Shown here: positions 4,848 to 38,768 of the stretch, piece after piece
How the letters are laid out: every line of letters begins with the position of its first letter
Position numbering within the stretch: position 1 is the first letter of the stretch
Virus record (IMG/VR): IMGVR_UViG_3300048881_000734
Location: 5,116 to 69,115 of that record
Direction: 5' to 3' (one strand)
From: a virus
Lineage: Duplodnaviria; Caudoviricetes
Length of the DNA: 64,000 bases
Translations under genes and position numbers: made by a program
Notes under the pieces: generated by a model
Database searches by the model: none
What the model was told of the DNA's origin: nothing
What the model saw: only the letters and a program-made list of their open reading frames with translations

Positions 4848-4866
4848 TCTATTTCCGGTAAGATGG

Positions 4867-4944
4867 TGGTAGGGCTGCTGGGACTTGAACCCAGAACCAC
4901 CGGTTTATGAGACCGACGCTCTGACCTGATTGAGCTACAGCCCT
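4867..4944 (-). tRNA. tRNA with CAU anticodon, probably tRNA-Ile2
   Basis: Cloverleaf AGGGCUG/CAGCCCU, loop CU-CAU-AA, CCA end; directly upstream of tilS. Ile2 versus Met is inferred from context. Confidence 0.85.
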
Positions 4945-4952
4945 ATAGGAAT

Positions 4953-4980
4953 ATAGTAAGCAATCTTATGAGTGTTTACA
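4953..4980 (-). promoter_or_regulatory. Class A promoter for the tRNA(CAU)-tilS unit
   Basis: TGTAAA-N16-TACTAT. Confidence 0.55.
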
Positions 4981-5326
4981 AGCCTTCAAGGGGCTCTAAA
5001 TGACGAAAATCATATCCTTCTAGAGCAATCCGGGCGCCGTCGTAAAGAAAGACATGATGCTTCTTTAAGCCGCCAACAAGCTTTTTGAGCCAAATGGGCC
5101 CGATATAAAACAGGGGTGTAAGTCGATCTTTGTCTCGTTGTCGCTTATTTGGCCACGCATGTGGAGGTGGGTCCTGATGAATCCATGCAGGCATCAAAAA
5201 GCCAGGAATGAATCCGGCCTCGAAGCATGTGTCTAATTCGTGTTGAGTAAGATTCTTAGTGTAGGATCTCGGTATACGTCCTTTCGCACAAAGAATTTGG
5301 CCTGGTTGGGCTTCACCGACTTTCAT
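4976..5326 (-). CDS. Hypothetical protein
   Basis: 116 aa ORF in a run of overlapping genes. Confidence 0.6.
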   Translation of the reverse strand: MKVGEAQPGQILCAKGRIPRSYTKNLTQHELDTCFEAGFIPGFLMPAWIHQDPPPHAWPNKRQRDKDRLTPLFYIGPIWLKKLVGGLKKHHVFLYDGARIALEGYDFRHLEPLEGL

Positions 5327-5507
5327 TTCGACGAAGCCTCCGGCGCTTAAGCTTAGCAGCCAGGGGAATTGTTACACATTCAGCCAAGGTACCAGCTATA
5401 CAGATCGCAAACCCTGCGTAAATAACGATAACAGCGCCGAGTATCTTTTGCGACAAGGGTTTGTTCCTGTATTCTTCTCTACGAGAATTCTCACTCCACG
5501 GCTCCAT
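5313..5507 (-). CDS. Small membrane protein
   Basis: One hydrophobic segment; GGAGG SD. Confidence 0.6.
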   Translation of the reverse strand: MEPWSENSRREEYRNKPLSQKILGAVIVIYAGFAICIAGTLAECVTIPLAAKLKRRRLRRNESR

Positions 5508-5533
5508 CGCAACCTCCTAAGTCTAAGTAATTA

Positions 5534-5561
5534 AATCTAAGAGAATTTCTAGCAATTTACA
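5534..5561 (-). promoter_or_regulatory. Class A promoter
   Basis: TGTAAA-N16-TAGATT. Confidence 0.45.
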
Positions 5562-5563
5562 CA

Positions 5564-5773
5564 CTAGTCCAAATCAGCTCTCATCAGATCAGACAAATCG
5601 TGTGTCACCACTGTTCCGTCACGATACTGCACAGCAGCTAATTGTCGTCCAGTGGGCGAACCCTCAGTCATCCATACATTGGCAGTTTTGTCTGTTGTTA
5701 TCTCCACGACAGTACCAATTTTCGCCATATTGAGATAATGATATACCGGTGTACCCACCTTAATATTCTGCAT
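5564..5773 (-). CDS. Small SH3/KOW-like hypothetical protein
   Basis: IKVGTPVY..KIGTVVEI. Confidence 0.65.
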   Translation of the reverse strand: MQNIKVGTPVYHYLNMAKIGTVVEITTDKTANVWMTEGSPTGRQLAAVQYRDGTVVTHDLSDLMRADLD

Positions 5774-5963
5774 TCGACTCTTCCTCCAGTCTTCTTGCTA
5801 ATCTTAACACATCTTTTGAAAATGTATCCGTAAATAACCACGGGAAAATCGAGTGAATAGTACAAGTGATGCTTAACTTGAGCGCCCACAGCGCGAATTT
5901 AACAGCTCGAATGGCATGTTGGAAGTATGTCATATTGACTTCTTTAAGATGTTGAATTGGCAC
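5760..5963 (-). CDS. Small conserved hypothetical (DUF6356-like)
   Basis: TYFQH..A...IHSIFPWLF pattern; real start probably at MTYFQH. Confidence 0.55.
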   Translation of the reverse strand: MPIQHLKEVNMTYFQHAIRAVKFALWALKLSITCTIHSIFPWLFTDTFSKDVLRLARRLEEESNAEY

Positions 5964-6157
5964 TAGTTCCCTCCAGACTTCAAGATATCAAAATCATCTC
6001 GGTCTAATGGATAAGTACCATGAGGAAAACTAACAAGCCAGTGGACTTGGCCAATTTTTTCTAAAATAATTCCCACACTTCCAGTGTCAAGACAGATCAC
6101 CAAATCACCCTGCTTCGGGGTGCGCGACTTTCTACCTTTCTTCCTTGCTCCAGACAT
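5963..6157 (-). CDS. Small SH3/KOW-like hypothetical protein
   Basis: KQGDLVIC..GSVGIILE. Confidence 0.6.
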   Translation of the reverse strand: MSGARKKGRKSRTPKQGDLVICLDTGSVGIILEKIGQVHWLVSFPHGTYPLDRDDFDILKSGGN

Positions 6158-6503
6158 ACTTCACCCATGAATATAGTTTGCGATCTTTAAGATAATCTAA
6201 ATCTTGATCGTTCGCATAAGCTTCCTGCTCAAACGGAATCATTTCATATGCACGGGCGCCGTTCCTATATCGTATTAGTCCTACAATCCAGAAGAGAGGA
6301 TACAATATAAGGAAACCCAGGAGCAAAAGCTCCACCCATTGTTTGAAGTGTATTGTCTCGTGATTCTTTCCCTCTTCGCTTAATTCGCCACGACAAAAAA
6401 CAAAGAGACCCAGGCTTATGGCCCATATATCGATGGGTGACACTTTCGAAAGAATCACAGGTAACCTGGAGTTTTCTACAAAAACTGGAAAAAAGTTCTT
6501 CAC
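6132..6503 (-). CDS. Membrane-associated HExxH metallopeptidase-like protein
   Basis: NHETIHFKQWVE followed by a TM segment and FEQEAY. Confidence 0.6.
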   Translation of the reverse strand: MKNFFPVFVENSRLPVILSKVSPIDIWAISLGLFVFCRGELSEEGKNHETIHFKQWVELLLLGFLILYPLFWIVGLIRYRNGARAYEMIPFEQEAYANDQDLDYLKDRKLYSWVKYVWSKEER

Positions 6504-6607
6504 CTGGCTTTCCCTGCTCGAGAGCGGAATGTTAGATTATTAGTCGTGGTCAACATTCTCACAAAAACTCCCAGGAAAACCATTGGTAAATATATCACAA
6601 CTCATCG

Positions 6608-6614
6608 ATAGTTA
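6608..6614 (+). promoter_or_regulatory. Class B promoter element
   Basis: ATAGTTA upstream of the protease gene. Confidence 0.35.
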
Positions 6615-6617
6615 ATA

Positions 6618-7322
6618 TTGGAGGCATCCCTTATGAAAAAAATTCTCTCTTTCTTCTTCTTAGCGCTTATCGTTCTTATCTCGCCTGCTCAATCGGAAGA
6701 GCCATCAATACCAAGCGCTACTGTAATCGACGGAACAGCCGATGTCTTATTTACCAACGCCCAACGAGCAAGTCGAAGCAGCGCAGTAAAAGTGGAGGGA
6801 TTAGAGGGAGGCCACGGTTCTGGTACATATCTCGAAATGTCCGGTCACCATCTGGTCATTACAGCAAGACATGTGGTGGATCGAAATGATATATACTACA
6901 TCTCCACAGGCTCTGAAAAAGTCGTTGGACAAGTTATCTGGAAATCGCAGACGAAAGACATGGCTGTCCTTAAAATACCAAGGTTAACATCTCGGACGGC
7001 TGTTACTCTTGCTCGTACAGGCGAGCTCGTTGTAGGCGAAGAAATCACCTACACAGGTTACCCCTCTGACTATCAATTATTGACCACAAAGGCGCACGTG
7101 GCTGGCTTTGAAAATAGCCCACGCTCGACGCTACTACAGGGGTTTGTTTGGTTTGGGTACTCAGGCTCAGGAGGCTTTGACAATTCGGGAAGGCTTCGTA
7201 CGATTATTTTTGCCATCGCAGTTGAAAACTTTCGTGGTCACCCTGCATTGTTAGAGACTCTGGTTTATACTCATGAAATAAGCAGAAAAGAGGTCGCTCA
7301 AATACGCGCTGCGCTTGACTAG
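6618..7322 (+). CDS. Secreted trypsin-like (S1) serine protease
   Basis: Signal peptide; GSG, ITARHVV (His), KDMAVL (Asp), GYSGSG (Ser); likely start at MKKIL. Confidence 0.85.
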   Translation: MEASLMKKILSFFFLALIVLISPAQSEEPSIPSATVIDGTADVLFTNAQRASRSSAVKVEGLEGGHGSGTYLEMSGHHLVITARHVVDRNDIYYISTGSEKVVGQVIWKSQTKDMAVLKIPRLTSRTAVTLARTGELVVGEEITYTGYPSDYQLLTTKAHVAGFENSPRSTLLQGFVWFGYSGSGGFDNSGRLRTIIFAIAVENFRGHPALLETLVYTHEISRKEVAQIRAALD

Positions 7323-9271
7323 GGAGCCATCTGCTCCATTTGAGTGTACAGCTTCGATCGCAATTTATCCAGAGTGGGATCATCTTCGGGTAATTGCTCC
7401 CAGTAATGACGAATTGCGTTTGGGAGCTGTGGGTCATCTAAATCGAAGCCATGCCTCAGCATATCCATAGCATCCTCTTTACCATAAACAGCTAGCAGGT
7501 CCTCGGCCCCATCATGTGCATGCGCATCAATCTCAATATGCGAGCGCAGATAGTCTTGAATGTAAAGTTTCTTTCTACCCTCTTTGCGAATTTTTTCGTT
7601 TCCTTCTTCGTCAAACTCACCAGTGGGCTCATACACTTCCCAGTATTTCGGGTCATTATCATCGGGGACCTGGGACGGATCTTGAATCATTTCTTCAAAT
7701 GCCTCGGCATCATCCAGGCCCTTCTTTTCTCCCTGTTTCTTCATTTGCTTATAGTGGACAAGCTCATGACGGACGGTCTGAGCTATATGCCTCGTCAGCG
7801 CATTCGGGTCCAAAGCTGGAAGATCGACTTCTGCTGTCATGCTTTCCATGTCAATGGTGTTTCTCCCGGGGTTTTGTTTGGAAACATACCAGCGAGCGTC
7901 AGTAAGCCACCTATTAGGATATGCCGGATGGTCGGGGTGGAGTGTCATCCCGTCAATGTCTGTAGTGTCGTGAGAATTAATGACGACATCAATATCTAGC
8001 TCTAATTCATCAAAAATATCCTGAAGAGCTATGGTCAGCGCTTCCATTGCTGGGGTGGCATTCACTGAACCAGCTCTCGTAGAAATTAAGTCAATATCCT
8101 CTTGAGAATTTGGCTCATCCCAAAATCTAGATGCCAAGATAGCGGCATCTATTTTTTTGAAATATGCTTCGGGTAATGTAGTCACTTCTAATAAAATACC
8201 TCTCACATATTCTCTGAGCAATGCTTCATTCATTTCTTCTTCATCCCACTTCTCGTGGCCGAGCCAGATGTCTTTTATCTCGGAATGTTCTTGTTGATTA
8301 ATCTTACCAACATCAACATAGTTGTTCAAATAACTGTCCACTAATTGCTCTATGGCCAAACCTGAGTCAGCAGCTTCTCCTCTAAAGCCGATAAGAAATG
8401 CTGGAACTTCGCACGCTTGCGTGAAGTAATGGAAATAGCTGTCTCCCTCGGTTGGCGGAGGAACTGGACAATTAGGACGCTCAAACGGTTTGCCGCGCTG
8501 GGTAAGATGATGAATTTCATGCGGTATAACATTGGATAATTCTTGCCTCAGCTTTTTCAATAGATCAGGCGTCATCTCTAGCGCTGGTGAAAACTCTGCC
8601 CTAACAGTTATAAGAGCCTCAGCGCTTTCACCATAGCCAGCATCGGCATCAATATTCCACCCGGGGTGATCGGCAGAAAAATCAGCAAATGATATGTCTA
8701 CATCAACGTCGAAAAAAGCACCGCCTTCGTCTTCCCAATTTTCAGCCCACGTATCAGGCGCAATGGGATAGTCCCACGTGTATGTATTTAGAAGCCTCTG
8801 CTCCTCAAGCCCTGCAGTGAAGACTTCCATAATTTCCTCGATGATGGGAACGGCAACATCTGAATAATGAAAATTAGGATCCGACAGACTAAAGGCAGCT
8901 GCCTCAAACAAGCTCGTTGAACTTGCCAAAAGCCCCTGGACAATGTCTCCAACTGTGATACCCTTATCAGTAAACCAGCCCTTGTTCGCTTCGAGGGCAA
9001 ACATCGCTGGTCCAGCAGAGGGAATACCCAGCATGTTGTGTGGCTCCATATCTTCTATGTTGAGGATGGTACCTTCCGAATCAAGATATGCAATAGAAAG
9101 AGGGATGTACGTATTCTTCATCCAGAAGCTTCGCTCTTCCGAATTGGGAAAAGAGAAAAGCATCCCAGAATCAGTGGGAAGGAAGTTTCTATACATCAGA
9201 CCGAGCTGCCTTGCTGCGTGGTCATCAGCTCTTTCGACATTTATGGAACTACCATTAATGACAAGCTTCAT
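7319..9271 (-). CDS. Multidomain protein: DUF192 plus two HExxH domains joined by the LLREY-type linker
   Basis: RQLGLMYR..GMLF..FWMKNTYIPLSIAY; PHEIHH; RHELVH; internal NEALLREYVRGILLE. Confidence 0.8.
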   Translation of the reverse strand: MKLVINGSSINVERADDHAARQLGLMYRNFLPTDSGMLFSFPNSEERSFWMKNTYIPLSIAYLDSEGTILNIEDMEPHNMLGIPSAGPAMFALEANKGWFTDKGITVGDIVQGLLASSTSLFEAAAFSLSDPNFHYSDVAVPIIEEIMEVFTAGLEEQRLLNTYTWDYPIAPDTWAENWEDEGGAFFDVDVDISFADFSADHPGWNIDADAGYGESAEALITVRAEFSPALEMTPDLLKKLRQELSNVIPHEIHHLTQRGKPFERPNCPVPPPTEGDSYFHYFTQACEVPAFLIGFRGEAADSGLAIEQLVDSYLNNYVDVGKINQQEHSEIKDIWLGHEKWDEEEMNEALLREYVRGILLEVTTLPEAYFKKIDAAILASRFWDEPNSQEDIDLISTRAGSVNATPAMEALTIALQDIFDELELDIDVVINSHDTTDIDGMTLHPDHPAYPNRWLTDARWYVSKQNPGRNTIDMESMTAEVDLPALDPNALTRHIAQTVRHELVHYKQMKKQGEKKGLDDAEAFEEMIQDPSQVPDDNDPKYWEVYEPTGEFDEEGNEKIRKEGRKKLYIQDYLRSHIEIDAHAHDGAEDLLAVYGKEDAMDMLRHGFDLDDPQLPNAIRHYWEQLPEDDPTLDKLRSKLYTQMEQMAP

Positions 9272-9274
9272 CTG

Positions 9275-10126
9275 TCACCCTCTATTGATTATGATTCCCT
9301 TGTGCCTAAATAGGTCGTTATCAATAGTATATGACAGGTGCATCCTCTCTATGTCGTAAATAATCCTATCATCAGTCGGCCCGTCAAAATCATACCCAAA
9401 AATAGTCAGCTCTCTGTTGAAGAACTTTTGAACAATTTCCTTGGAAGCCGAATCATAATAATTTCTATAATCTTTCTTCCGGCGGTGGCTGACATTTGTT
9501 TTCTCAGCTGGTGGATGTTCGATATCTTCAAAGCCAGCAGCGGAGAGAAGATGCTCCATTCCTTCTTCCAGGTGCTCGGCTCTAACTACAAAATCCACAA
9601 CAGCAGAGCCGCCCTGACCAAACCACTGAGAGTACATCATCCTCTTCCAGTAAGACGTATTGAGAGCATGATTCCACGCGACCTTAGGACTACAGAACTT
9701 TTCTACGAACTCAGGAAAACTTCTGATCCCATAGATGTAATTAACATTCCCCCATCCATCCTCTGTTTCTGGAGTTCCATGGAGATACCAGCTCACAAGC
9801 CAAGAGAATGGATTTCTCGTAAGAGAAAATTTCAGCATATTATCCCATGTATTCGGTCGGAGTGGATAGCTTTGCTGGACTTGAAGTTTTATATCGATTC
9901 CATCAACTCTCCCAAAAATGGGTGTTGTAAGCTGTTCAACTTTAAGGAAGGGAAAGGGGTGAGGGTCGGCAATGTGGTATGTCTCTATCCCGCGCTGGTT
10001 GAGGTACCACTTCACAGCCGTCCCTGCAGTCTTTGGAACATGAATGAAAAACACGCGCTGGGTTTCTGGAAGAATGCCCCACCGTGACGCAACCCTCTCT
10101 TCAAATCCTTCAGGATATTCTTGCAT
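9275..10126 (-). CDS. Sulfotransferase family 2 protein
   Basis: FFIHVPKTAGTAV (5'-PSB loop), RNPFSWLVSWY (3'-PB), DFVVRAEHL. Confidence 0.85.
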   Translation of the reverse strand: MQEYPEGFEERVASRWGILPETQRVFFIHVPKTAGTAVKWYLNQRGIETYHIADPHPFPFLKVEQLTTPIFGRVDGIDIKLQVQQSYPLRPNTWDNMLKFSLTRNPFSWLVSWYLHGTPETEDGWGNVNYIYGIRSFPEFVEKFCSPKVAWNHALNTSYWKRMMYSQWFGQGGSAVVDFVVRAEHLEEGMEHLLSAAGFEDIEHPPAEKTNVSHRRKKDYRNYYDSASKEIVQKFFNRELTIFGYDFDGPTDDRIIYDIERMHLSYTIDNDLFRHKGIIINRG

Positions 10127-10306
10127 TCTTAAACTCCTGTTGGATTTTAAGAGAATTGAAGAAGATGTACTACCCTAGCGCTGCAACAACCATCGCATAT
10201 ACCAAAAAAGACGTCATCGTACAAAGGGTCCCCAAAGCAAGAGCCCCACACACGACGTCTTTAAGAGTTACCCCCCGCCAGTGCATCCATTTTTTTATTC
10301 TTTTTA

Positions 10307-10636
10307 TCATTTCTCATACTTCTCCGCGTATCCTTCTGCAAGCAGCCAATCGTTAATACACTCGTCCTCGAGCCAGATTTCTCCAAGCCAACGACCGTAT
10401 TTCCCTTTTTTGTCTTGTTGCGTTTTTAGCTTTATCCACTTGCTACCGATCTTTCCCCGCAGTGCGTCTCTTGATTTGAGTCCTTCTGGGCGCTCTGGGC
10501 CACGCACTTCGGGAGTGTTAATCCTGAGGAGACGAATCTTCTGCTTATGAAGCACAATATCAAAGCCCAAGTCGATGTCAACTGTGATTGTGTCACCATC
10601 ATAGACTTTCCTCACGTATGCCCTATATTCGTACAT
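10307..10636 (-). CDS. Thermonuclease (SNase-like)
   Basis: VYDGDTITVDIDLGF, RLLRINTPE, GKYGRWLG. Confidence 0.9.
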   Translation of the reverse strand: MYEYRAYVRKVYDGDTITVDIDLGFDIVLHKQKIRLLRINTPEVRGPERPEGLKSRDALRGKIGSKWIKLKTQQDKKGKYGRWLGEIWLEDECINDWLLAEGYAEKYEK

Positions 10637-11097
10637 TATACCCTCGCATCACGTTGTCGCATCGTACCAAGTAGCTCTTCGTCCCATGGACCTTCATACC
10701 CTGACAAATAACACTTATTCATCGCTTCCTCAGCGGTAAACTCATCAGTGACTTCAGGCTGATACATGTCATAATAAACGTCTTTTGGAATTCCGTCCGG
10801 CTTCGTTATCTTTGTCTGATCATCGAAAACCAAGTCGCCCATCTCAACCCATGCATGGACGATAGGTTTCGGCGGCCGCTTCCACTTGTCAGTCACCTTC
10901 CCATGTACGACCTTGAACTTGTCCATGTTGCCAAGATCCGGATGCTTGGTGCCTGACTGGTCTGGGTCATCAGGTGGAGTGTAGTGATCCTCAAACCACT
11001 CCTCAGCTTTCTGAATTGTGAATGGAAAGCACATGCCTTGAGCTAAAACCTTCTGCTCGCGCAGAAGCTCTCTTATGTATTTACGCAGCAGACTCAT
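10636..11097 (-). CDS. Tagged papain/transglutaminase-like Cys-His protein
   Basis: N-terminal MSLLRKYIRELLRE; GMCF, VVHG, HAWVE. Confidence 0.6.
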   Translation of the reverse strand: MSLLRKYIRELLREQKVLAQGMCFPFTIQKAEEWFEDHYTPPDDPDQSGTKHPDLGNMDKFKVVHGKVTDKWKRPPKPIVHAWVEMGDLVFDDQTKITKPDGIPKDVYYDMYQPEVTDEFTAEEAMNKCYLSGYEGPWDEELLGTMRQRDARV

Positions 11098-12782
11098 CTT
11101 CTTGCCCACTTCTTTAAGGCTTCCCAATCCCGGTGTTCGCGGGGGAACTTTCCTTGTGGGTTTTTTCGAGGGTGATTGGTGAAAGCCACCGCCCCTGGAT
11201 ATTGATAACTCATCTGCATGAGCGATCGGAAGTTCCGAAATCCCGAAATAGTCGAATCACCGAGTATTTCATTTGGGTTCATATCAGATTGCCAATTCAT
11301 ATGAATGAGTTCCATGACGTCAATGTGTCTCTTATTGAATTCATTATGCGCTGGCACTTCGTGCAGTGGTCCTTCACGACCGATAACTGGACCCTCTGCA
11401 ACTTCTTGGCCTTGCTCTAGATACGCATCGACCAGATCAACAATAGCGTTTAGATGCTCAGCTAGCTCTTCAGCGCCGGGTATCATTTCAGCTATCTGGA
11501 TACCCTGATTAGCAGTATCCCAAAACATTCGAAGGATCTTCTCATGCGTTTCATCATCGATGGCTTCATTCAATAGCCCCCTTATGTACTCACGTAACAG
11601 GCTCTCTCCAACGATCTCATCATATGCGACCATCTCTGCGTCTATCAACGCTTTTCCAAGATCCGGACCCTTTATTCCTTGAGCCATAAGCTCTTGGGGA
11701 TTTCCTGCTTGTGGCGCAGCGACATAGTCTAAAAACTTTTTAGCAGCAGCAGGAGTAGGAACACCGAAAACTGCCGCAAATTCCGTTATAACCGCAGGGT
11801 CAAGCTTGAATCGCTTAAAGTCTTTTTTGAGCTGTGGCGCAGTTTCTCTTGACATGCCCTTAAACGCCACGAGAAACTGAACCAGTTTCGATTCGTCGTT
11901 TGAGTATCTTATTTTTTTTAGAGTGGTGCCTACAGCTGGTGGGTCGTTATTTCCCAATAGCGAAGCTGTCTGGATTATGGCGTTTTGCGTCGTTGGTCCA
12001 GATATGTCGACATCAAGACCTGGAAAAATCTGCTCGAACAGGCCGAGCTCTTCCGTCAGCTCCAGGAAGTAACCAACATCCTGAGCCGATGTTATTCCCT
12101 TGGTAAATTCATCTCTTATCCGTTCTGGCGACACTTCTCTCAATTCATTGTCATCGAGAATCGCTTGCTTTGTTTCCTCATCTAACTCAGACCCAGTACG
12201 TCCCGCAAATCTAACCGCTCGTAGAATTCGAAGCGGGTCTTCTGCAAATCTGTCTGCAGCTGCGCCAACGGGTCGAACGATGCCGTCCTCAATATCCTGA
12301 ATACCCCCAACGAAATCAATAACTTCCTGAGAAGACATGTCGTAGAAAAGAGCATTCATTGTAAGGTCTCTACGTTGGGCGTCTGTTTCCATGTCTGTAA
12401 AGCTCACATCATCCGGTCGTCGGCCGGAGCCAATGTCTTCCCGGAATGTAGCAACTTCATATTCATTCCCAGCAGGTGTCTTTACAAGCACCACACCAAA
12501 TGACTCGCCAACCGGCTTAATTTGAAGCTGAGGATCTCGCTGAAGAATCTTGGTAACTTTCTCAGGTGGAGCGTTGGTAGCCACATCATAATCTTTTGGT
12601 GATTGACCCATGAGGGCATCTCGTACTGCGCCGCCGACAAGATAAAGTTCCATGCCCGCTGATTCCATTCTCTTTTGAATATCTTGAAGATCAGCAGGGA
12701 CTGATATGTTGAGTGATTGCCGAACCGGTCCGGCTTCGTCACCCTCTACAATAACTTTGATATATTGATGCAACAGGTTCAT
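11094..12782 (-). CDS. cca: CCA-adding enzyme / tRNA nucleotidyltransferase with tagged C-terminal extra domain
   Basis: LVGGAVRD, KDYDVAT, RRDLTMNAL, EDPLRILRAVRF; N-terminal MNLLHQYIKVIVE and internal ESLLREYIRGLLNE. CCA versus poly(A) activity not resolved. Confidence 0.85.
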   Translation of the reverse strand: MNLLHQYIKVIVEGDEAGPVRQSLNISVPADLQDIQKRMESAGMELYLVGGAVRDALMGQSPKDYDVATNAPPEKVTKILQRDPQLQIKPVGESFGVVLVKTPAGNEYEVATFREDIGSGRRPDDVSFTDMETDAQRRDLTMNALFYDMSSQEVIDFVGGIQDIEDGIVRPVGAAADRFAEDPLRILRAVRFAGRTGSELDEETKQAILDDNELREVSPERIRDEFTKGITSAQDVGYFLELTEELGLFEQIFPGLDVDISGPTTQNAIIQTASLLGNNDPPAVGTTLKKIRYSNDESKLVQFLVAFKGMSRETAPQLKKDFKRFKLDPAVITEFAAVFGVPTPAAAKKFLDYVAAPQAGNPQELMAQGIKGPDLGKALIDAEMVAYDEIVGESLLREYIRGLLNEAIDDETHEKILRMFWDTANQGIQIAEMIPGAEELAEHLNAIVDLVDAYLEQGQEVAEGPVIGREGPLHEVPAHNEFNKRHIDVMELIHMNWQSDMNPNEILGDSTISGFRNFRSLMQMSYQYPGAVAFTNHPRKNPQGKFPREHRDWEALKKWARR

Positions 12783-13297
12783 GCTTTCACCTTCCCCATA
12801 CTGAAAGCGACCGGCTTAAACTTGGACCAGTTTTTGCCGCCCTTCTTATCAGCAATGAAAACATTGATGGTGGCTATCTCTATTTCTTCGCCCTTCGGAA
12901 TCCTTACCTCGCTTTCATCTGAAAACATACCTGGCTCTTCACCGGCAGCCTGCGGGTCATACCCGAAATCATTCGGTACTTTGCCCCAAAACATTACATG
13001 AAGGGTCTTGCCTCGATTAGTCGCGGACCACACATCGGCAAAGCTTGAAGCAACATCCATATCTAGTGTCCAGGACTCGCCAATCTCTTCATTTTCCAGC
13101 TGAGCCATGATAAATGAGCCAGCCTCACGTTCACTTAACGCGGAGGATTGGTTTCTGGCGAGCTTTCTTATTTGTGACGCTAGACCCGCAGAGGGCATAT
13201 CAATCTTCATTCCGCGATAAATGTATCTGAAACCTGGTCCGGCGGAGTTATCTCTTTCTGTTATTATCTCTCTTATGTATTCACGTAATAGATTCAT
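12779..13297 (-). CDS. Tagged ADP-ribosyltransferase-like protein (R-S-E)
   Basis: MNLLREYIREIITE; YRG, ESWT, ESEVRI. Confidence 0.6.
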   Translation of the reverse strand: MNLLREYIREIITERDNSAGPGFRYIYRGMKIDMPSAGLASQIRKLARNQSSALSEREAGSFIMAQLENEEIGESWTLDMDVASSFADVWSATNRGKTLHVMFWGKVPNDFGYDPQAAGEEPGMFSDESEVRIPKGEEIEIATINVFIADKKGGKNWSKFKPVAFSMGKVKA

Positions 13298-13731
13298 TTT
13301 GGCTCCCTGATCATATGCCCATAATCATTAGTGCTGGGGACAAATCCAACGGAGCCATAAAACCTATAAAGATCATCGTGTTCTGCGCCAAACTCTCCGT
13401 ATGCCCCTACCTCTAGCTCAAGCGTAATATCGTACATGTCTGCTTTATTTACAACTGTTTCCATTACATTTCTGGCGTATCCTTTTTTGTAACACTCATC
13501 AGACTCCCGACCTTTTGAATCTACGGTCTCTATAAAGTCAAACCGGACTGTGTCAGAATCTGTATGATCTTTGAGGCTTATTCTTACCTCGCACCCATCG
13601 GGAAACTTTTCTACCAAAGTACCTTTTGGACCGCTGTAAAAGCTAGCTTTCATCTCATCAAGGAACATATTCGCTGGACCATTCCGCTCTGTAAGAAGTA
13701 TCTGTCTTATGTATTCACGCAGCAGATTCAT
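13294..13731 (-). CDS. Tagged GNAT acetyltransferase
   Basis: MNLLREYIRQILLTE; KKGYARNVM, LYRFYGSVGF. Confidence 0.65.
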   Translation of the reverse strand: MNLLREYIRQILLTERNGPANMFLDEMKASFYSGPKGTLVEKFPDGCEVRISLKDHTDSDTVRFDFIETVDSKGRESDECYKKGYARNVMETVVNKADMYDITLELEVGAYGEFGAEHDDLYRFYGSVGFVPSTNDYGHMIREPK

Positions 13732-14746
13732 CTTTACAACCCTCATCTGCGCTTATCAGCTCTTTTATTCCAGATGCGTTCCATACACAGCCTGACGCGA
13801 CATCCCACCCGTAATACCAGTCTGAATCCATCCGCATGTCATGCAGATAGGGGCAGATCTCAATACCATCATAGTGACTTGCAACCTTTGGCCAGTCAAT
13901 CTTGATATCTCCATAGCTGTTGGTAGTAACACCATACATCTTATTAAACTTCTTGAAGTCGTCGTTATTTGTTATGAATAGAATCTCATAATCATTCAAA
14001 ATAACATCATACGAACTATCATACCTGCTTGCGCCGTCAGTTAGACCCGTCCTACAAAACTCCTTCCAGTCGATGGAGCTACCGTCTTGGCACTCGTACC
14101 ACAGACCATCGGGCTTGTAACCAATCTCCTGGGAAAACCCACTAACCTGTGGTTCTTTACCATCTCGAGTATCTTGTCGACTGTGGTGGATACGTACCTT
14201 CTCACCGCCAGTCAAGGGGAAGTGAGATTCACGAATAAGCTCTCTTATGTATTCACGGAGTAAGGATTCTTTCATCGGGCGTAGCGAGCCAGGCCGGACC
14301 AAGAGTTCGTCCTCCACAAAATCGCCGGCCGGCCAGAGATGTTCAACTGAAACTAGAACATCAGAACGATTCACCATATATGATGCGACGGTGGCGCCCT
14401 TGCCGCCATAATAGCCACCGCTACAGCCCCCATCAGCAACTCTCTTGTTAGTCGTCACCGATGTTACGTCACCGGCTAATCCGCCGCATCGCCAAACTTG
14501 AATCTCGTCTGGAAAATCAGAGGCTATGGCAGCCTGAGTTTTCTGATACATCTCATCGGCAGCTGCTTGAACGTCTTCCATCCGTACAGTGTTTAGATCA
14601 TATTGAGTAGCGAAATAATCCAGCACATCTTCCTGATTCGGATCAGCCCAAAGATATGATATGTTTTCAGATTGACAACAGCCATCATCTGCTATTGTTT
14701 GTGCCAGCCAGCTCTGAAATGACATGAATTTCATTCCGGGCTCCAT
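13715..14746 (-). CDS. Two-domain protein: ART-like domain, linker, unknown domain
   Basis: VWRCG, TSVTT, EDELLV; internal KESLLREYIRELIRE; C-terminal KPDGLW..YDGI..WDVASG domain. Confidence 0.6.
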   Translation of the reverse strand: MEPGMKFMSFQSWLAQTIADDGCCQSENISYLWADPNQEDVLDYFATQYDLNTVRMEDVQAAADEMYQKTQAAIASDFPDEIQVWRCGGLAGDVTSVTTNKRVADGGCSGGYYGGKGATVASYMVNRSDVLVSVEHLWPAGDFVEDELLVRPGSLRPMKESLLREYIRELIRESHFPLTGGEKVRIHHSRQDTRDGKEPQVSGFSQEIGYKPDGLWYECQDGSSIDWKEFCRTGLTDGASRYDSSYDVILNDYEILFITNNDDFKKFNKMYGVTTNSYGDIKIDWPKVASHYDGIEICPYLHDMRMDSDWYYGWDVASGCVWNASGIKELISADEGCKDESAA

Positions 14747-16224
14747 AGCTCTTCGCGCGCAGTGTTGTAAATCGGTACCCCAAATTCGGAAGCCACTCTG
14801 AATATCTCGCCAATCTTACCGGGAGCCTCGACTGTATCACCAGCTTCGCCCCATTCAATAACTCTCTCTTCCCACTCGGCACTGACGGCGATGACACCAA
14901 CCGCATTCCAATTATCAACCAGCGCTTCGTTGCCACCAGACCGGCTTTGTGAAGGATCCCATGTAGACTGGTCCACTACATACGGAATGCTTCGTGCCAT
15001 CCGCTCTCCAAACTCGGACCCCGGCTTGAGCATCCCATACCTGCTAAAGTCTTTCGACATTGTGGGACGCTTGTTGATACCGGAGGATTTTTTCTGCTGT
15101 TCGTACTCTTCATCAGTCACATCGCTGGTAAGCCCCGGCATGTAATCATACATGTGACCGCTGTACAAGGCATCTTGATCGTTAGCTGCTAACGTAATTC
15201 GACCCTTGATCCACAGTCCAAACTTGTAGTCTCCGAGAGGACGAAGCCACCCCTCACCCGGGGGAGTCATTGTGGCTGACAACTCGTCTTTGCCGCTGCC
15301 GGGCAGATGGGCCAATGAATAAATGTCCTTCGCCCAGTGTACCGTGTCTAAAGTGGATAGCCACTCATGGTCAGCGTTTACTCTGAATGCATCCTTGATC
15401 GCCTTCCCACCAGCCTTCCCGATTTCGCCACCATAAAAGTGTTCTCCCTCTGGATCCATCTTATCAGAAGCCTTGGCCAGGTCTTGGACGAAGCCCATCG
15501 GGTCTTCAAGAAGTAACGCTTCAGCCAATCCCATGTCCTTATACCAATTAACGATAACGTCATTGGTGTTTTGTCCAACCCAATTTTTCTTCTGTCTGCC
15601 TTTTGCCTTACCGTCTTGACCCATGGTTTTTCTATCGGCCTTGTCCCAGCCGTATTCATTGACTTCTAAAAGCATCTCGCGAATGTACGACCTCAATGCG
15701 CTCTCAATAACAACATCAGCGTCTATGTCACACGGGGCATCTAAAACCTGATTGACGAAATGCGGAATAGCTTCCAAGCCCAGACCCTCGATCATCTTTA
15801 CGAAAGTTTCTAAATGATTCGATCTATCATCCCAAACTTGTACAACTTCTAAATCAGGCATGCCTGCTATAAACTGCTCCATCATCGATGATTTCCACGG
15901 TGCTGTTCCACCCCCGGGCTTCAAATGGACTTCGTCAAAAGACAAACCTGCACCTGCTATCAATTCTTCCACTCGTGCTGACAGCTCGGGGGAAGCGCCA
16001 CGGCCTGTCATCAGAACCGTGTACACTTCAGGATTCCCTATACTTTCCATAGCATCTGATACTGTGCTGTTAATCCACATCCCACTTGGATCGACAACAC
16101 ATGGCGGAGTAAGCGACTGAAGTGTATCATACCAACTACCAATGTGCCCTTCCCAATCATCTGGATGCATAGGGCTCATGAAGAGAGTCGCATCAAAATC
16201 GTATATGTGAAGTTCTCTAATCAT
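14731..16224 (-). CDS. HAD phosphatase (Swiss-army-knife RNA-repair-like), linker, unknown domain
   Basis: IYDFDATLF, LMTGR, LKP, VWDDR; internal IESALRSYIREMLLE. Confidence 0.75.
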   Translation of the reverse strand: MIRELHIYDFDATLFMSPMHPDDWEGHIGSWYDTLQSLTPPCVVDPSGMWINSTVSDAMESIGNPEVYTVLMTGRGASPELSARVEELIAGAGLSFDEVHLKPGGGTAPWKSSMMEQFIAGMPDLEVVQVWDDRSNHLETFVKMIEGLGLEAIPHFVNQVLDAPCDIDADVVIESALRSYIREMLLEVNEYGWDKADRKTMGQDGKAKGRQKKNWVGQNTNDVIVNWYKDMGLAEALLLEDPMGFVQDLAKASDKMDPEGEHFYGGEIGKAGGKAIKDAFRVNADHEWLSTLDTVHWAKDIYSLAHLPGSGKDELSATMTPPGEGWLRPLGDYKFGLWIKGRITLAANDQDALYSGHMYDYMPGLTSDVTDEEYEQQKKSSGINKRPTMSKDFSRYGMLKPGSEFGERMARSIPYVVDQSTWDPSQSRSGGNEALVDNWNAVGVIAVSAEWEERVIEWGEAGDTVEAPGKIGEIFRVASEFGVPIYNTAREELWSPE

Positions 16225-16907
16225 AACTTGCTTGTCTGCCTTGCGAGAAAGCCCTCTCGATCACCCGGAGCACCGTGGTCGTAATCACGAATCCAGAATG
16301 AGTATGAATTAGGGTGGCGGGATATGTTAACCGTAAACTCCCCAGACATCGCAACTGTGAAAGGATGCACTTTCTCCCATACTTCTGGAGTGTCAGTATC
16401 GCCGACAAATCCGTCAACATTCTCAACGAACTCGTCTGGTGGTATTTCTACAGTCACCGACGTCGAGGCTTGGGCACGATTCGTATATCGCACTTCTACG
16501 TTCGTGCCTTCTAGTGAATTAAAGAGCTCAACAGCCTGTTGTATGTAATCTTCATCTTGAGTTTTTATCAACTCAAAAATTGGCTCAAGGTCCGCGGGGC
16601 TAGACTGTAGTATGGGGGACTCCATCAAAAGTAGCTCACGAACATATGCTCGAAGAGACTCAAGGACAGACGGGTCTGCCATCAACGCGTGGTCCAGCTT
16701 TTCGAACCACTCTTCTTTTGTTTTGGGTCTGGTTTCGGGAGAATTGAGGTCGATGGCTTCTTTTCCATTGACGAGTATAATACCTTCTTCTCGGTTTATC
16801 ATCACAGACACGCCTGGGTTCTTTCGCTTCCACTGCATCTTGATGCTCTTCGCCATGAGTTCATCAGTCTTATCAATTCTTTCTTGTAGCGTCAGTTTGC
16901 TCATCAC
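16221..16907 (-). CDS. Two-part hypothetical protein with internal linker
   Basis: Internal VLESLRAYVRELLLME. Confidence 0.7.
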   Translation of the reverse strand: MMSKLTLQERIDKTDELMAKSIKMQWKRKNPGVSVMINREEGIILVNGKEAIDLNSPETRPKTKEEWFEKLDHALMADPSVLESLRAYVRELLLMESPILQSSPADLEPIFELIKTQDEDYIQQAVELFNSLEGTNVEVRYTNRAQASTSVTVEIPPDEFVENVDGFVGDTDTPEVWEKVHPFTVAMSGEFTVNISRHPNSYSFWIRDYDHGAPGDREGFLARQTSKL

Positions 16908-17611
16908 ACATTCCCCACAATTATCTTCAAGTGCTCTTCGCCGGCGCCGTAACTTCTAGAATACCACCCATCCTTTCCAGGACCGTAGTCTTTGGTAGGA
17001 TGTTTTCCTACCCACTCCATGTCTCGCTGAATCAGAGCTCTCGCTTTTTCTTCGTCGGTGACAACGGGTACTCCGGCTGACATTGCAATTTCTGCAGGCT
17101 TACCAGAAACTTCAGCAAACGTACCAGGCTGCTGGACGAGTTCAAGCAACCTTGAAATGCTGATTCTCTTGCCAGCTCCCCCGTCATGACCCATGCCACC
17201 AATCTTTAAATTAGATCCGCGCATTTTTCCGAAGACCACAGCATCGGGTGCAGGGTCATCATCCACATCCACCACATCAAAAAATGTGTACTCACCCGGT
17301 AGCATCTCAGCAGACTTCACTTTTAGATTTCCGCCCTCAAGACCAGCGTATGCTGCTTGGACCAGATCAAAAATCTCATCATCAAGGTCAATCTCTGGAG
17401 TATGTACTGCAATCTCTTCTTCAGGAACATCCATCCACTGACCGCTCGTTGGATTGAGGTCGGCAAACTTCTTCTCGCTTATTATCTCTCTTAGAAATCC
17501 CCTGAGTAGTGCTTCATTCACAACCTCTTGTTCTAGCGTATCAAGAATATCAGCGGCCACAGGGACATTTTGCGTATTGACTTGTGTAAAGATTTCCTGT
17601 TTTTTTCTCAT
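16904..17611 (-). CDS. Tagged hypothetical protein
   Basis: NEALLRGFLREIISE near the N-terminus; ATGA overlap with upstream gene suggests start at MRKKQ. Confidence 0.7.
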   Translation of the reverse strand: MRKKQEIFTQVNTQNVPVAADILDTLEQEVVNEALLRGFLREIISEKKFADLNPTSGQWMDVPEEEIAVHTPEIDLDDEIFDLVQAAYAGLEGGNLKVKSAEMLPGEYTFFDVVDVDDDPAPDAVVFGKMRGSNLKIGGMGHDGGAGKRISISRLLELVQQPGTFAEVSGKPAEIAMSAGVPVVTDEEKARALIQRDMEWVGKHPTKDYGPGKDGWYSRSYGAGEEHLKIIVGNV

Positions 17612-17955
17612 AATCCACTCTCTGTCTCGAGATCCCACGGACCCCAGTGGCCGTAATCTAGGATCTTCGTGCGGGCTTCTTCCCACGGATACTCAATGAC
17701 ATTATCGATTCTATCAATCTGCCCGATCGTGTAATAAAGCTGGACCGGCATTGAGATGTCTCTCCCGTTTGATTTGTCGATGACAGTCGAACCATCGAGT
17801 ACCCAAGCATGCCCAAATGGTATTCCAGCGATGGGACCTTGACCCATAACTTCACCATGCACGAGAATAAACTGGCAGTCATCTGGATTTCCAAATCCGC
17901 ATTTGTCCATTATGAACTTGCCTGCTGCTTCATAACAATCGCCGCCTGTACTCAT
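17608..17955 (-). CDS. Papain/transglutaminase-like Cys-His protein (paralog of 10636..11097)
   Basis: GDCYEAA, LVHG, HAWV. Confidence 0.6.
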   Translation of the reverse strand: MSTGGDCYEAAGKFIMDKCGFGNPDDCQFILVHGEVMGQGPIAGIPFGHAWVLDGSTVIDKSNGRDISMPVQLYYTIGQIDRIDNVIEYPWEEARTKILDYGHWGPWDLETESGL

Positions 17956-18476
17956 TAGAAATACTCCGCCCCCTTCGTCTTGATGTCCGGATATTTCTCT
18001 GCCATCTTGTCTTTCAGGTGGCCGATCTCTTTCCGCATCATCTTACCAAAATTAACGTAGTCACCCGGTTGGGGGATCGTTTGGTAGAACTCGTCGATTA
18101 ACTTACTAGCAACACCGCTGCCTTGGGAATCTCCCCGAGTTTTCATGTAATCGATGTACCAAAACGTAGCGCCGCTGGAAACCTCACCCTCGCTATGGTA
18201 GTCTAAAAATCCGATGATGCAAACATCGCTAACCCCAGGGACTATTTCATCAAGAACTGGCTTTTTTAATCGCTTTCCACCCTTTGAGTACTTTCGCCAA
18301 TTTTCCCATTCCTTAAAATAAGCATCACGTTTTTCTGGTGGGTCTGTCACTCCGGTGTCACAATATGCGATGCGCTTTACGTTGCTCGCACGGTTGTAGG
18401 TAAGCGGAGAATCAACTTCTCGAAACTCGACACTCTCTCTTAAAAATTCTTTTAGATACTCTCTGAGAAGGCTCAT
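17955..18476 (-). CDS. Tagged GNAT acetyltransferase
   Basis: MSLLREYLKEFLRE; YIDYMKT..QGSGVASKLI (motif A). Confidence 0.65.
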   Translation of the reverse strand: MSLLREYLKEFLRESVEFREVDSPLTYNRASNVKRIAYCDTGVTDPPEKRDAYFKEWENWRKYSKGGKRLKKPVLDEIVPGVSDVCIIGFLDYHSEGEVSSGATFWYIDYMKTRGDSQGSGVASKLIDEFYQTIPQPGDYVNFGKMMRKEIGHLKDKMAEKYPDIKTKGAEYF

Positions 18477-18775
18477 TAATTCCTCCGTACTGAATAAGCT
18501 TTCCCTGCCGGTGGGGGAGCGGGAGCAAGTTGGTCCATTGTCTTCTTGAGAATGTCCCCAACACTCCATGTCGGGCCCGCGTTAGTGCATTCATACTCTA
18601 CAACTTTTCCCTGGTCGTCAGGAAGCTCCCCCACAGACAAAACAATCCCCTCGCTACCCTGGTGCTTGCAATTATCGTTTATATTGATAATCGCGTCGCC
18701 TTCCATGGGCTCGAAGGTGTGGCTTTGAAAAGTTTCCCTAAGTATACTTCGAATATACTCTCTTAGGATGTTCAT
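18476..18775 (-). CDS. Tagged small SH3-like protein
   Basis: MNILREYIRSILRE; EGDAII..GIVLSV. Confidence 0.7.
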   Translation of the reverse strand: MNILREYIRSILRETFQSHTFEPMEGDAIININDNCKHQGSEGIVLSVGELPDDQGKVVEYECTNAGPTWSVGDILKKTMDQLAPAPPPAGKAYSVRRN

Positions 18776-18779
18776 ACAC

Positions 18780-19526
18780 TTATCCCCGCAATACTGACAT
18801 AAGTATTTTGCGGAGACGGTCTTTTATCCCTTCTTTACAAGTTTGAGGTGCTGCAGCGCTTCCATTTGTGACCTGATATGCTGAAACCTTCACATTTGGG
18901 GAATATTGTTTACATAATTGGGCCACAGCCCTTACATTCCGCTCACTGTCATCGTAGAAAATTAATTCTTCTGGTTGGTGCTGATCTATGTACTGTGCGA
19001 GGACAGAAGCCTTCCCAGCCGGCGTTTCGCCGTCCATATCGCCCACTGTGTGCAACTGATCGTCCCCAATGCCTACTCCATTGTTGTTTAAGAACTCGAG
19101 GATCTGCTGCCGGTTCTGGGGCATTATATTCGTCCCCTGAGCGGGGCTGAACATCTCTTTATTACCCGCTCGAGCTGTCACAACTAAAGCTACAGCCTCA
19201 GGGTCGGCCTGGGCCTCTGCCAACTTTGATAACATCGAGCTAATCCCGGTTGAGAGCTCCATATCAATCGATGCTGTTCCAGAATAATCTATTTCATCCT
19301 CAGCACCCTTAGGGACTGCAAGATCTTCAAATAATGCGAAGTTCGCGGAATCAAGCCACCAGAAATCTTGTTCATTTCTGACGTATTGAATATTGTTGTC
19401 TAATAGAAAGTCTTCAAACGCGGGATCAGGCGATCCATCGGCCAAAAGCCTTCGGACGCCGATGGTAGAAACGGTTTGAGCTAAAGTATCATCGAAATCA
19501 AATGCTATGATTCTCTTAATAGGCAT
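18780..19526 (-). CDS. HAD-family phosphatase
   Basis: FDFDDTL, VTAR, FYDDSERN; C-terminal RLRKILMSVLRG. Confidence 0.8.
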   Translation of the reverse strand: MPIKRIIAFDFDDTLAQTVSTIGVRRLLADGSPDPAFEDFLLDNNIQYVRNEQDFWWLDSANFALFEDLAVPKGAEDEIDYSGTASIDMELSTGISSMLSKLAEAQADPEAVALVVTARAGNKEMFSPAQGTNIMPQNRQQILEFLNNNGVGIGDDQLHTVGDMDGETPAGKASVLAQYIDQHQPEELIFYDDSERNVRAVAQLCKQYSPNVKVSAYQVTNGSAAAPQTCKEGIKDRLRKILMSVLRG

Positions 19527-19531
19527 ATCCT

Positions 19532-19538
19532 TAAATAT
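19532..19538 (-). promoter_or_regulatory. Class B promoter element
   Basis: ATATTTA heading the tagged-gene run. Confidence 0.45.
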
Positions 19539-19568
19539 ATTGTAGAGAAAGACCTATAAATGTACAGC

Positions 19569-20483
19569 TCACCCTTCTGGACGTTCTACAACTCGAATAT
19601 TGATCTGGGGCTCGTGGCCTTCAGGTGTTTTGTCGATAACACCTTCAAAATCGCATTCTTTAGGGAAATAATAAAAAACAAACTCCTTGTCTGGCAAGTG
19701 CATCGCAACCTGAGAGGTTGTCATCATGCCCGTGTCAGGAAGCGTCCGGCGGAGCATGTTATTATTAGACTCTGGCTCTAGATGTTGTTGAGCGATGGCG
19801 GGAGCGATCTCTTCAAACTCACTAACGTCAGCTAATTCAACTTCAGCTTGAGCTTTCCTAATCTTGGAAGACATATAGTCATCTGGCCGTCTTTCTGGTG
19901 AATATCCGGCGCCGACGTGTTCATGACCGTGATTTGTACGTACGTCATAGCCGGTGGTTGGGTCCAACTTATTAATAATTGGAGTATGCTCAGAGGACAT
20001 TTCAATGCTGTATAAAGAAGTAGGGTTCCCAACGAACGTGTGACCCTTAATTCCGCCCATATAGCCAACAAGAGACTTTATAGCTTCATCTATGTCTTGA
20101 AACTGCAGTGCGTTAATCATTCTAGGGCCATCATCTGACGAGACCTTCCCTTTCGTTTTATCTTTGATAGCTTTTTCATCATCTGATATTGAAAGAGCAG
20201 AATTAATAACACCGAGTCCATGAGAATTCATACCCTCGGCATATCCGGTATCGAGATCCTCAAAATAAACCACCTCTGTCCCATCCGGCAGAAGGTCTCT
20301 AACAATCTCAATACGAGCGTGATAATTTCGGTCTCTGGATTTCGCCAAAACATGGCCCCCGTCAGCAGAACCGGCCACGATTATACACTCATCCATCCTT
20401 CGGTAATTGTTCAACCGTGCTAGCACAGCTTCCAATAATCGTATTTCGTTCACGGGGACTCCAGAAAAAATAAGTGAAGACAT
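19569..20483 (-). CDS. Ntn-hydrolase (peptidase C45-like) with propeptide
   Basis: MDE|CIIVAG..LAKSRD, EGMNSHGL, RTNHG; possible GTG start at 20453 with GGAG SD. Confidence 0.7.
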   Translation of the reverse strand: MSSLIFSGVPVNEIRLLEAVLARLNNYRRMDECIIVAGSADGGHVLAKSRDRNYHARIEIVRDLLPDGTEVVYFEDLDTGYAEGMNSHGLGVINSALSISDDEKAIKDKTKGKVSSDDGPRMINALQFQDIDEAIKSLVGYMGGIKGHTFVGNPTSLYSIEMSSEHTPIINKLDPTTGYDVRTNHGHEHVGAGYSPERRPDDYMSSKIRKAQAEVELADVSEFEEIAPAIAQQHLEPESNNNMLRRTLPDTGMMTTSQVAMHLPDKEFVFYYFPKECDFEGVIDKTPEGHEPQINIRVVERPEG

Positions 20484-20493: not shown

Positions 20494-20547
20494 GTTGTAA
20501 AAATCGTGATGTTGATAAATATAATAAGAAAAACCAAACCTTTTCAT

Positions 20548-38374: not shown

Positions 38375-38768
38375 ATCCTACATCTCCCAATAGACTCACG
38401 TCATTAAAAATATCATCGCACCGGCTTGCATACTCTAAATCAAGCTCTGTCACAGCATCTAAATCATGAGTCCAGACCTCAACCACAACACCCATCCCAT
38501 CGGCTAAAATGCGGCCGTTGTGGCCTGATTGCACTTCATCTTCCAATAATTCTTTCAAGAACCAATTCCGCCTTTCGATATCTTCAAAATCAAACTTCCT
38601 CACCAAGCGCTCAGGGTCGGCGGCAACCGCCCAAGTACTTTCTTCAGCAGAAAGGGGGAGCTCGTCCACATGCTCGACGACTAAACCAAACATGTCTCCG
38701 TCAGGAGACTTTTGTTTATTAAGATAGTTTTTCATCACTGATCGAAGCATCATTAATCCTCCTGTCAC
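38361..38768 (-). CDS. Pterin-4a-carbinolamine dehydratase-like protein
   Basis: LVRKFDF..GHN..VEVWTHD..VTELDLEYA. Confidence 0.7.
   Translation of the reverse strand: MTGGLMMLRSVMKNYLNKQKSPDGDMFGLVVEHVDELPLSAEESTWAVAADPERLVRKFDFEDIERRNWFLKELLEDEVQSGHNGRILADGMGVVVEVWTHDLDAVTELDLEYASRCDDIFNDVSLLGDVGYGYR

Follow-up and report, generated by a model that had tools for sequence, protein, structure and literature searches.

A short peptide tag on a run of unrelated enzyme genes in an uncultured T4-superfamily jumbo phage: a candidate head-loading leader with internal copies

The stretch of DNA considered here (the window: 64 kb, positions 5,116 to 69,115 of IMG/VR record IMGVR_UViG_3300048881_000734) belongs to a 69-kb viral contig with an estimated completeness of 25%, and is a fragment of an uncultured T4-superfamily jumbo phage. 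Among its genes are those for DnaK, GroEL, a DnaE-type polymerase and a ThyA-like protein, the last by a PHROG match to "thymidylate synthase". On its minus strand, 12 copies of one short peptide (the tag) are spread over 11 adjacent genes between 8186 and 18775 (Table 1). The tag has the consensus x-LLREYIRxLLxE and spans 13-15 residues, typically 14; with its start variants it reads M/E-[NSK]-L-L-R-E-Y-I-R-x-L-L-x-E. An initial annotation, which took the peptide for a candidate capsid-packaging signal, had counted 12 copies in 11 genes with six at N-termini. Every copy is present where that annotation placed it, and the N-terminal six begin at Met codons at 11097, 12782, 13297, 13731, 18476 and 18775.

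The two kinds of copy differ in how they begin. For three of the six N-terminal copies the longest open reading frame (ORF) starts farther upstream; the tag Met directly abuts the preceding gene and is likely the start codon. The six internal copies carry Glu in place of Met, and each of them is preceded by a second hydrophobic-x-Glu (MNE/A, VGE/S, MKE/S, VIE/S, VLE/S and VNE/A, with the slash behind the Glu). All 12 copies, N-terminal and internal, terminate in hydrophobic-x-Glu. The clustering is far from chance: a loose regular expression applied to the six frames of the window gave 11 hits, every one of them at 8.2-18.8 kb on the minus strand, against an expectation of 0.6 from DNA shuffles and 0.09 from residue shuffles of the real proteins. 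With a motif hidden Markov model (HMM) run over the whole 69-kb contig, the 12 copies scored 13.9-22.5 bits and the best other hit 4.8 bits.

Table 1. The tag-bearing gene run and its features, in the direction of the minus strand (aa, amino acids)
Feature	Position	Strand	Remarks
ATATTTAT, candidate late-promoter motif	20515..20522	-	31 nt ahead of the run's first ATG (20483)
Probable operon, single-strand gene run with all 12 tags	7319..20483	-	genes abut or overlap, no strand switch
Untagged Ntn-hydrolase-like gene	19569-20483	-	
Untagged HAD-like gene	18780-19526	-	
N-terminal tag MNILREYIRSILRE	18734..18775	-	99-aa protein (18476-18775); motif HMM
N-terminal tag MSLLREYLKEFLRE	18435..18476	-	173-aa GNAT-like protein (17955-18476)
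Untagged gene, 115-aa protein	17608-17955	-	
Internal tag EALLRGFLREIISE	17474..17515	-	aa 33-46 of 235-aa protein (16904-17611); preceded by a 32-aa leader ending ...VVNE
Internal tag ESLRAYVRELLLME	16620..16661	-	aa 82-95 of 227-aa protein (16221-16904); stretch before Tyr one residue shorter
Internal tag ESALRSYIREMLLE	15664..15705	-	aa 174-187 of 497-aa protein (14731-16224); separates the HAD_SAK_1 domain from the C-terminal domain
Internal tag ESLLREYIRELIRE	14228..14269	-	aa 160-173 of 343-aa protein (13715-14746)
N-terminal tag MNLLREYIRQILLTE	13687..13731	-	145-aa protein (13294-13731)
N-terminal tag MNLLREYIREIITE	13256..13297	-	172-aa ADP-ribosyltransferase-like protein (12779-13297)
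N-terminal tag MNLLHQYIKVIVE	12744..12782	-	562-aa CCA-adding-type nucleotidyltransferase (11094-12782); most divergent copy
Internal tag ESLLREYIRGLLNE	11565..11606	-	aa 393-406 of the same 562-aa protein; precedes a C-terminal domain of ~155 aa
N-terminal tag MSLLRKYIRELLRE	11056..11097	-	153-aa protein (10636-11097)
Untagged SNase-like gene	10307-10636	-	
Untagged sulfotransferase gene	9275-10126	-	
Internal tag EALLREYVRGILLE	8186..8227	-	aa 349-362 of 650-aa protein (7319-9271)

The tag recurs in related phages, and it does so together with a T4-type prohead protease. An exact-pattern scan of IMG/VR for MNLLREYIR returned 31 loci on 25 contigs of up to 293 kb, often several per contig. 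Five relatives (G001 to G005; the window's phage is G000) were examined in detail, and each has 9-12 tags within one 4-10-kb run. The closest complete relative, G001 (293,409 bp, with terminal repeats), has a head module in T4 order: terminase, portal, protease, small proteins, a scaffold-like protein and two gp23-like capsid genes. The protease gene of G001 is at 171474-172085. Peptidase_S77, the family of the T4 gp21-type prohead protease, is present in all ten tag-bearing IMG/VR contigs of at least 119 kb (E 1e-25 to 1e-28); its nearest cultured relatives are in Microcystis phage Mel-JY01, Flavobacterium phages and T4-like cyanophages. For the window's own phage, the protease evidence comes from these relatives. 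Megablast and blastn searches for cultured relatives with the tag region and the protease gene gave no match, and a loose DNA pattern for the tag showed no enrichment over control in Mel-JY01, the pattern being too degenerate to inform.

The likeness to T4 extends to the position of individual residues. T4 internal proteins IPII and IPIII start MKTYQEFIAE/A and IPI starts MKTFKEF...ITE/A (sequence records), and the N-terminal 10 residues of IPIII are enough for incorporation into the head (PMC9026906, PMC9958956, PMC5694885, PMC3012670), targeting being driven by residues 4 and 7 and processing by residues 8 and 10 (PMC9026906). The protease gp21 trims IPI-III, Alt and gp23 at hydrophobic-x-Glu-type sites (in Alt, ITE-6 and LTE-619; PMC5694885), and the T-even internal proteins are diverse, sharing only this capsid-targeting sequence (CTS) (PMC3012670). 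Numbered from Met1, the tag is M-N-L-L4-R-E6-Y7-I8-R-E10-L-L-x-E14 and stands in register with the T4 CTS at the mapped positions 4, 7, 8 and 10 (in T4 Y4, F7, I8 and E10). Among 38 N-terminal copies from six phages, chosen by the tag core only, L4 occurs in 37, E6 in 34, Y7 in 37, I8 in 35, E10 in 19 and E14 in 30, and every one carries a hydrophobic-x-Glu with its Glu at position 10, 13, 14 or 15. The 30 internal copies in the six phages have Glu at position 1 in 17 cases and a hydrophobic residue two before it in 17.

Two AlphaFold2 (AF2) models suggest how the tag sits on its carriers. In the 172-aa protein it is predicted as a helix (residues 2-16, predicted local distance difference test (pLDDT) ~50) ahead of a confidently modelled domain, and in the 343-aa protein as a helix (159-170, pLDDT below 50) between two folded domains; in these models, then, the tag is an exposed amphipathic helix detached from, or lying between, folded domains. 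Comparison of genomes shows that fusions, splits and re-partnering of modules fall exactly at the tags. In G003 the part of the 650-aa protein behind the tag is encoded on its own, by a gene that begins with the tag. The ADP-ribosyltransferase (ART)-like domain, N-tagged in the window, stands in G001 behind "...LEQEVVNE + tag", and that leader-plus-tag sits in the window on a different cargo (the 235-aa protein). The two halves of the 497-aa protein are separate or differently fused in G001, G002, G004 and G005, the C-terminal half of the 343-aa protein is elsewhere usually a stand-alone N-tagged protein of ~190 aa, and in G004 the 153-aa module is fused ahead of the CCA enzyme. One cargo was found variously N-tagged, behind a leader plus tag, between two tags and with different leaders. 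Tags can also be C-terminal at times: in G004 (L057, cluster ~4754-5290 and 5294-6931) a tag stands immediately ahead of the stop codon in two genes, and the gene that follows the C-terminal tag begins with a variant of its own, MTLLRECVKEMLVE. T4 Alt is likewise trimmed at its C-terminus.

The LLREYIR tag is one of several leaders in these genomes. A second leader, MKITKRQLRRIIRE(E), is found in G001 (L039, L051; 47.9-57.8 kb and 284.7-286.3 kb) on ~26-28 mostly small proteins (70-260 aa), and it also occurs in the clusters of G003, G004 and G005; none was found in the window's 69-kb contig. It ends I-x-E and has the core xLRxhIRE in common with the LLREYIR tag. The C-terminal cargo domain of the 343-aa protein occurs, moreover, behind MKIKTSQLRHIIRE..., a leader like the second one, behind MKITRRQLSKLIRE and behind a third type, MKLLFENWRQYLLTE, and all three end in hydrophobic-x-Glu. 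No publication containing either motif string, that of the tag or that of the second leader, was found. Homologues of this domain in metagenomic phages (P0123, P0134, P0144, P0148, P0152, P0155) have MKLLFENWRQYLLTE leaders and hybrids of the first and second tags, MKIKTSQLRHIIRESIILNE.

What the tag is attached to could be named in part. Pfam and PHROGs identify the 562-aa protein as a CCA-adding/poly(A)-polymerase-type nucleotidyltransferase (Pfam matching the head domain), the 497-aa protein as HAD_SAK_1 and the 650-aa protein as DUF192, as the initial annotation had proposed for its CCA enzyme, HAD and DUF192 cargoes. Its ART-like cargo has gained support as well. In the 172-aa protein R28, S75-W-T and E128-x-E130 are invariant among 27 homologues, the AF2 model has a mean pLDDT of 84.7 (above 90 for the domain 21-172), and residues 21-169 match TreX/TreTu, PltA, cholera toxin and pertussis S1 with Z of 6-7.1, in the middling range; motifs and fold thus support its prediction as an R-S-E ADP-ribosyltransferase-like protein. 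A PDB sequence search with the ART alignment gave nothing significant, and Foldseek alone gave weak matches for this assignment. The proposed GNAT identity of the 173-aa cargo draws its support solely from protein-language-model features (Atlas, score 0.95), and no identity was obtained for the 153-aa cargo, which had been described as a Cys-His fold. The 650-aa protein is laid out as DUF192 plus an HExxH region, the tag, and a second HExxH region (the motifs HEIHH and HELVH flank the tag, one per side), and from these motifs the two regions may be two metallopeptidase-like modules. Fold searches with the model of the 343-aa protein (13715-14746, minus strand) gave weak matches enriched in ADP-ribosyltransferases (ExoS/ExoT, ART2.2, C3), which would fit a second ART-like module.

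With moderate confidence, we favour the reading that the tag is a head-loading leader like the T4 CTS, cut by a gp21-type protease and also employed within proteins as a polyprotein joint, and we infer that tagged proteins are docked, cleaved, packaged and injected in the following way. The operon would probably be expressed together with the head genes. The amphipathic leader helix would dock its cargo on the scaffolding core of the assembling prohead, and after closure of the shell the gp21-type (Peptidase S77) protease would cut behind Glu in one or both of the motifs that close the leader, I8-x-E10 and L12-x-E14. The mature enzyme would thus be freed within the head and would exit with the DNA at infection. 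Internal copies would serve as protease joints: the upstream hydrophobic-x-Glu would let the protease excise the tag and separate the polyprotein modules. The initial annotation's picture of enzymes loaded into the head, clipped behind Glu and co-injected is thus partly supported, by indirect evidence, the host-takeover role that it gave the enzymes being putative. T4 already provides the concept; the novelty lies in the sequence, in a length that accommodates two nested predicted cleavage sites, in cargo of enzyme size, in the use as internal joints and in the scale. A wider and more tentative version, which we regard as possible and would not yet bet on, is that marine T4-like jumbo phages use a set of swappable leaders (LLREYIRxLLxE, MKITKRQLRRIIRE, MKLLxENWRxYLLxE) to load dozens of different proteins, about a tenth of their proteome, into the head, among them polyproteins cut into separate enzymes in the capsid, and that partly homogenised tag DNA serves as a recombination handle for module exchange.

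The timing of expression is addressed by the motif ATATTTAT. On the coding strand it has only two copies in 64 kb, one of them ahead of the tag operon. In G001 the motif precedes portal, sheath-like and further large structural-region genes by 20-55 nt, and it is also found ahead of three tag-bearing genes; the early sigma-70-like promoter class of that genome is a different one (TTCTGTAAAAAA, ~14 nt, then TGGTATAAT). The position of the motif is suggestive of expression of the tag operon with the structural genes. The T4 late promoter TATAAATA was also considered as timing evidence and dropped, as it is not enriched in G001 or G000.

A number of observations weigh against the CTS-like reading. 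The timing point is only suggestive because ATATTTAT was not found before the tag clusters of G002-G005, and the late-promoter role of the motif is itself putative. The window's own contig, a 25% fragment, has no Peptidase_S77 match and no head genes, and tblastn with three tagged proteins found no cultured carrier among 50,697 GenBank phage records. E10 is present in about half of the N-terminal copies (19 of 38), with E13-E15 in the rest; the tag shares 4-5 of 10 positions with the CTS, a stretch too short for statistics, and a likeness over 10 residues may reflect convergence or chance. Proteins behind the second leader are very acidic (median isoelectric point 4.35), unlike the basic T4 internal proteins, and with that leader counted ~40 genes of G001 (~10%) would be cargo, far above T4. 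Some nucleotide-level homogenisation or recombination among tags does occur. Finally, the initial annotation expected a motif HMM to find the tag in scaffold or core proteins, and this was not borne out: strict tag HMMs match no head or scaffold protein of G001. In a soft BLOSUM profile, a 143-aa protein beside the G001 protease is the best non-tag N-terminus for the second leader (rank 26 of 388, a modest signal) and ranks 20th for the first; its N-terminus, MAKISKSMLKGIVKECLVEILAE, is kept in four relatives. Just after the prohead protease in G001 (172544-172975 and 172991-173323) lie small proteins with the conserved N-termini MAKISKSMLKGIVKECLVEILAE and ...KLTPALLKKLVLEEK, which resemble leaders by eye, the support coming from the soft profile; L032, L034 and L035 have equivalents.

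Four other explanations of the tag are less likely on this evidence. An unlikely alternative is a helix that docks the carriers onto a different common partner, such as a multi-enzyme complex or a chaperone (as a handle for the phage DnaK or GroEL), or that acts as a cellular localisation signal, with no link to the capsid. Such a role would suit an amphipathic helix rich in Leu, Ile, Tyr and Arg and exposed on its carriers, a phage that encodes both DnaK and GroEL, strict HMMs that find no tag in head proteins, and cargoes many of which are ordinary cytoplasmic enzymes. It does not predict the terminal hydrophobic-x-Glu, the second one before internal copies, the CTS register or the equivalence of fused and split forms, and the S77 protease is the sole co-occurring candidate partner found. 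That the tag is only a processing site (a propeptide or polyprotein joint, with head entry otherwise determined or with the enzymes acting in the cytoplasm after cleavage) has a small chance of being right. About three residues would suffice for that, yet conservation is highest at positions 3-9, and these match the CTS targeting positions, and the gp21-type protease in T4 works only inside proheads (PMC9958956). The bracketing of internal copies by hydrophobic-x-Glu sites and the interchangeability of modules as fused or separate genes do speak for processing, as does a trypsin-like peptidase gene that adjoins the cluster; this neighbour is encoded on the opposite strand, and its N-terminus is of the secretion type.

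The codons of the tag bear on a further explanation, in which the tag DNA is a recombination handle for cargo cassettes and the peptide a by-product. Across the six phages (the window, L051 and L055-L058; the counts include orthologues and so are non-independent), Ile8 is ATA in 40 of 51 tags (78%, against a 31% background; P = 3e-12), Tyr7 is TAC in 36 of 50 and Arg9 is AGR in 37 of 43; module swaps, as described, fall exactly at the tags. The TAC-ATA-AGR preference hints at gene conversion between tags or at a constraint at the mRNA level. Within G000, however, the seven core codons are shared at the level of chance (identity 92 observed, 89.9 expected from codon usage; P = 0.40), Leu and first-Arg codons vary freely, and selection on the tag as a whole therefore acts at the level of the peptide. 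A DNA repeat as the sole explanation is ruled out by this codon test in spite of the three biased codons, which are best seen as a secondary effect of the tags, arising by gene conversion or micro-homology. Amino acids, reading frame, N-terminal position and terminal Glu are all conserved, and a role at the DNA level with the peptide as by-product is accordingly very improbable. Slightly less probable again is a role as N-terminal degron or turnover signal, by which a cellular protease would remove the enzymes at a set time. The tag does give many proteins one short start of Met, a polar or basic residue and two hydrophobic residues, and some N-terminal motifs recognised by ClpX are loosely similar to the start of the tag; internal and C-terminal copies, for their part, can't be N-degrons, and the conserved Glu sites and the association with S77 are left unexplained. 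There is next to no prospect, last, that a radical-SAM maturase recognises or modifies the tag, in the manner of ribosomally synthesised and post-translationally modified peptides: one weak hit below cut-off lies inside the G002 cluster, and PF04055 gives no match in G000, the complete 293-kb G001, G003 or G005, all of which bear tags, so the idea is contradicted for the clade because the enzyme is missing.

Like the T4 CTS (on IPI, IPII and IPIII, and as the short Alt propeptide; Mullaney and Black, 1996), the tag is a short N-terminal leader on otherwise unrelated proteins. Both have a hydrophobic residue at 4, an aromatic one at 7, Ile at 8 and Glu at 10 counted from Met1, both end in (L/I)-x-E, and both belong to lineages with a gp21-family protease. 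One tag cargo is ADP-ribosyltransferase-like, as is the packaged T4 Alt, and the genes of the carriers make up a variable cluster comparable to the polymorphic ip loci of T-even phages. In contrast to the CTS, the tag has 14 residues rather than 10, with a second nested motif (L12-x-E14); its carriers in a single operon are 11 proteins, most of them the size of enzymes, whereas those of T4 are few, small and basic; it occurs internally as well, as a joint in multi-domain proteins behind another hydrophobic-x-Glu; it is one of several interchangeable leader variants that together reach ~40 genes in the complete relative; and head loading by it is a prediction from sequence.

Two other systems of packaged proteins are instructive. 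In phiKZ-like giant phages (SPN3US, phiKZ), propeptides of ejection proteins are cut by an S80 prohead protease at (A/S/G)-x-E (PMC5694885, PMC10052503). They resemble the tag in processing after Glu, conserved N-termini among paralogues, several sites per propeptide and enzymes among the cargo. They differ in that they are mostly 80-160 residues long with no single portable short tag; the phiKZ-like phages, moreover, use another protease family and a small residue at P3, whereas the tag-bearing clade has a close gp21 homologue and Leu, Ile, Val or Met at P3. The Dar system of phage P1 packages DarA, DarB, Hdf and others in the head (PMC9024508, PMC12810830). As proposed for the tagged proteins, it is a set of anti-defence proteins or enzymes loaded into the capsid and delivered with the DNA. 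Loading in P1 is hierarchical, in an order that depends on the proteins themselves, and is not known to use a single short cleavable tag shared by all.

If the CTS-like reading is true, head loading by a short cleavable tag would be widespread and greatly expanded in abundant uncultured jumbo phages, and would not be a peculiarity of T-even coliphages. Enzymes of RNA-repair type and tRNA enzymes, ADP-ribosyltransferases and acetyltransferases would be delivered along with the DNA. The strategy would offer one explanation for part of the extra coding capacity of jumbo phages, and injected effectors could be predicted from the leader sequence alone. The leaders would also amount to a collection, made by nature, of portable tags for packaging and of linkers that a protease cuts.

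The surroundings of the gene run hold a few further features. The trypsin-like peptidase gene mentioned above (Trypsin_2, 6618-7322, plus strand; its secretion-type N-terminus is hydrophobic) abuts the end of the operon. Beside the promoter region at the other end, two genes lie in a short plus-strand island: 21997-23208 has a weak tubulin/FtsZ-like match (24.6 bits, below cut-off) and is followed by a zeta-toxin/AAA-kinase-like protein (23210-24199). Farther along, three large minus-strand proteins without a PHROG match (34478-35749, 38765-39802 and 40315-41346) have weak leader-like N-termini, MRELDEIFVRNEIRKILSE, MRKNFNNLRHQARKLLFE and ...NVILKEIREVLRE, which end in hydrophobic-x-Glu and score far below true tags.

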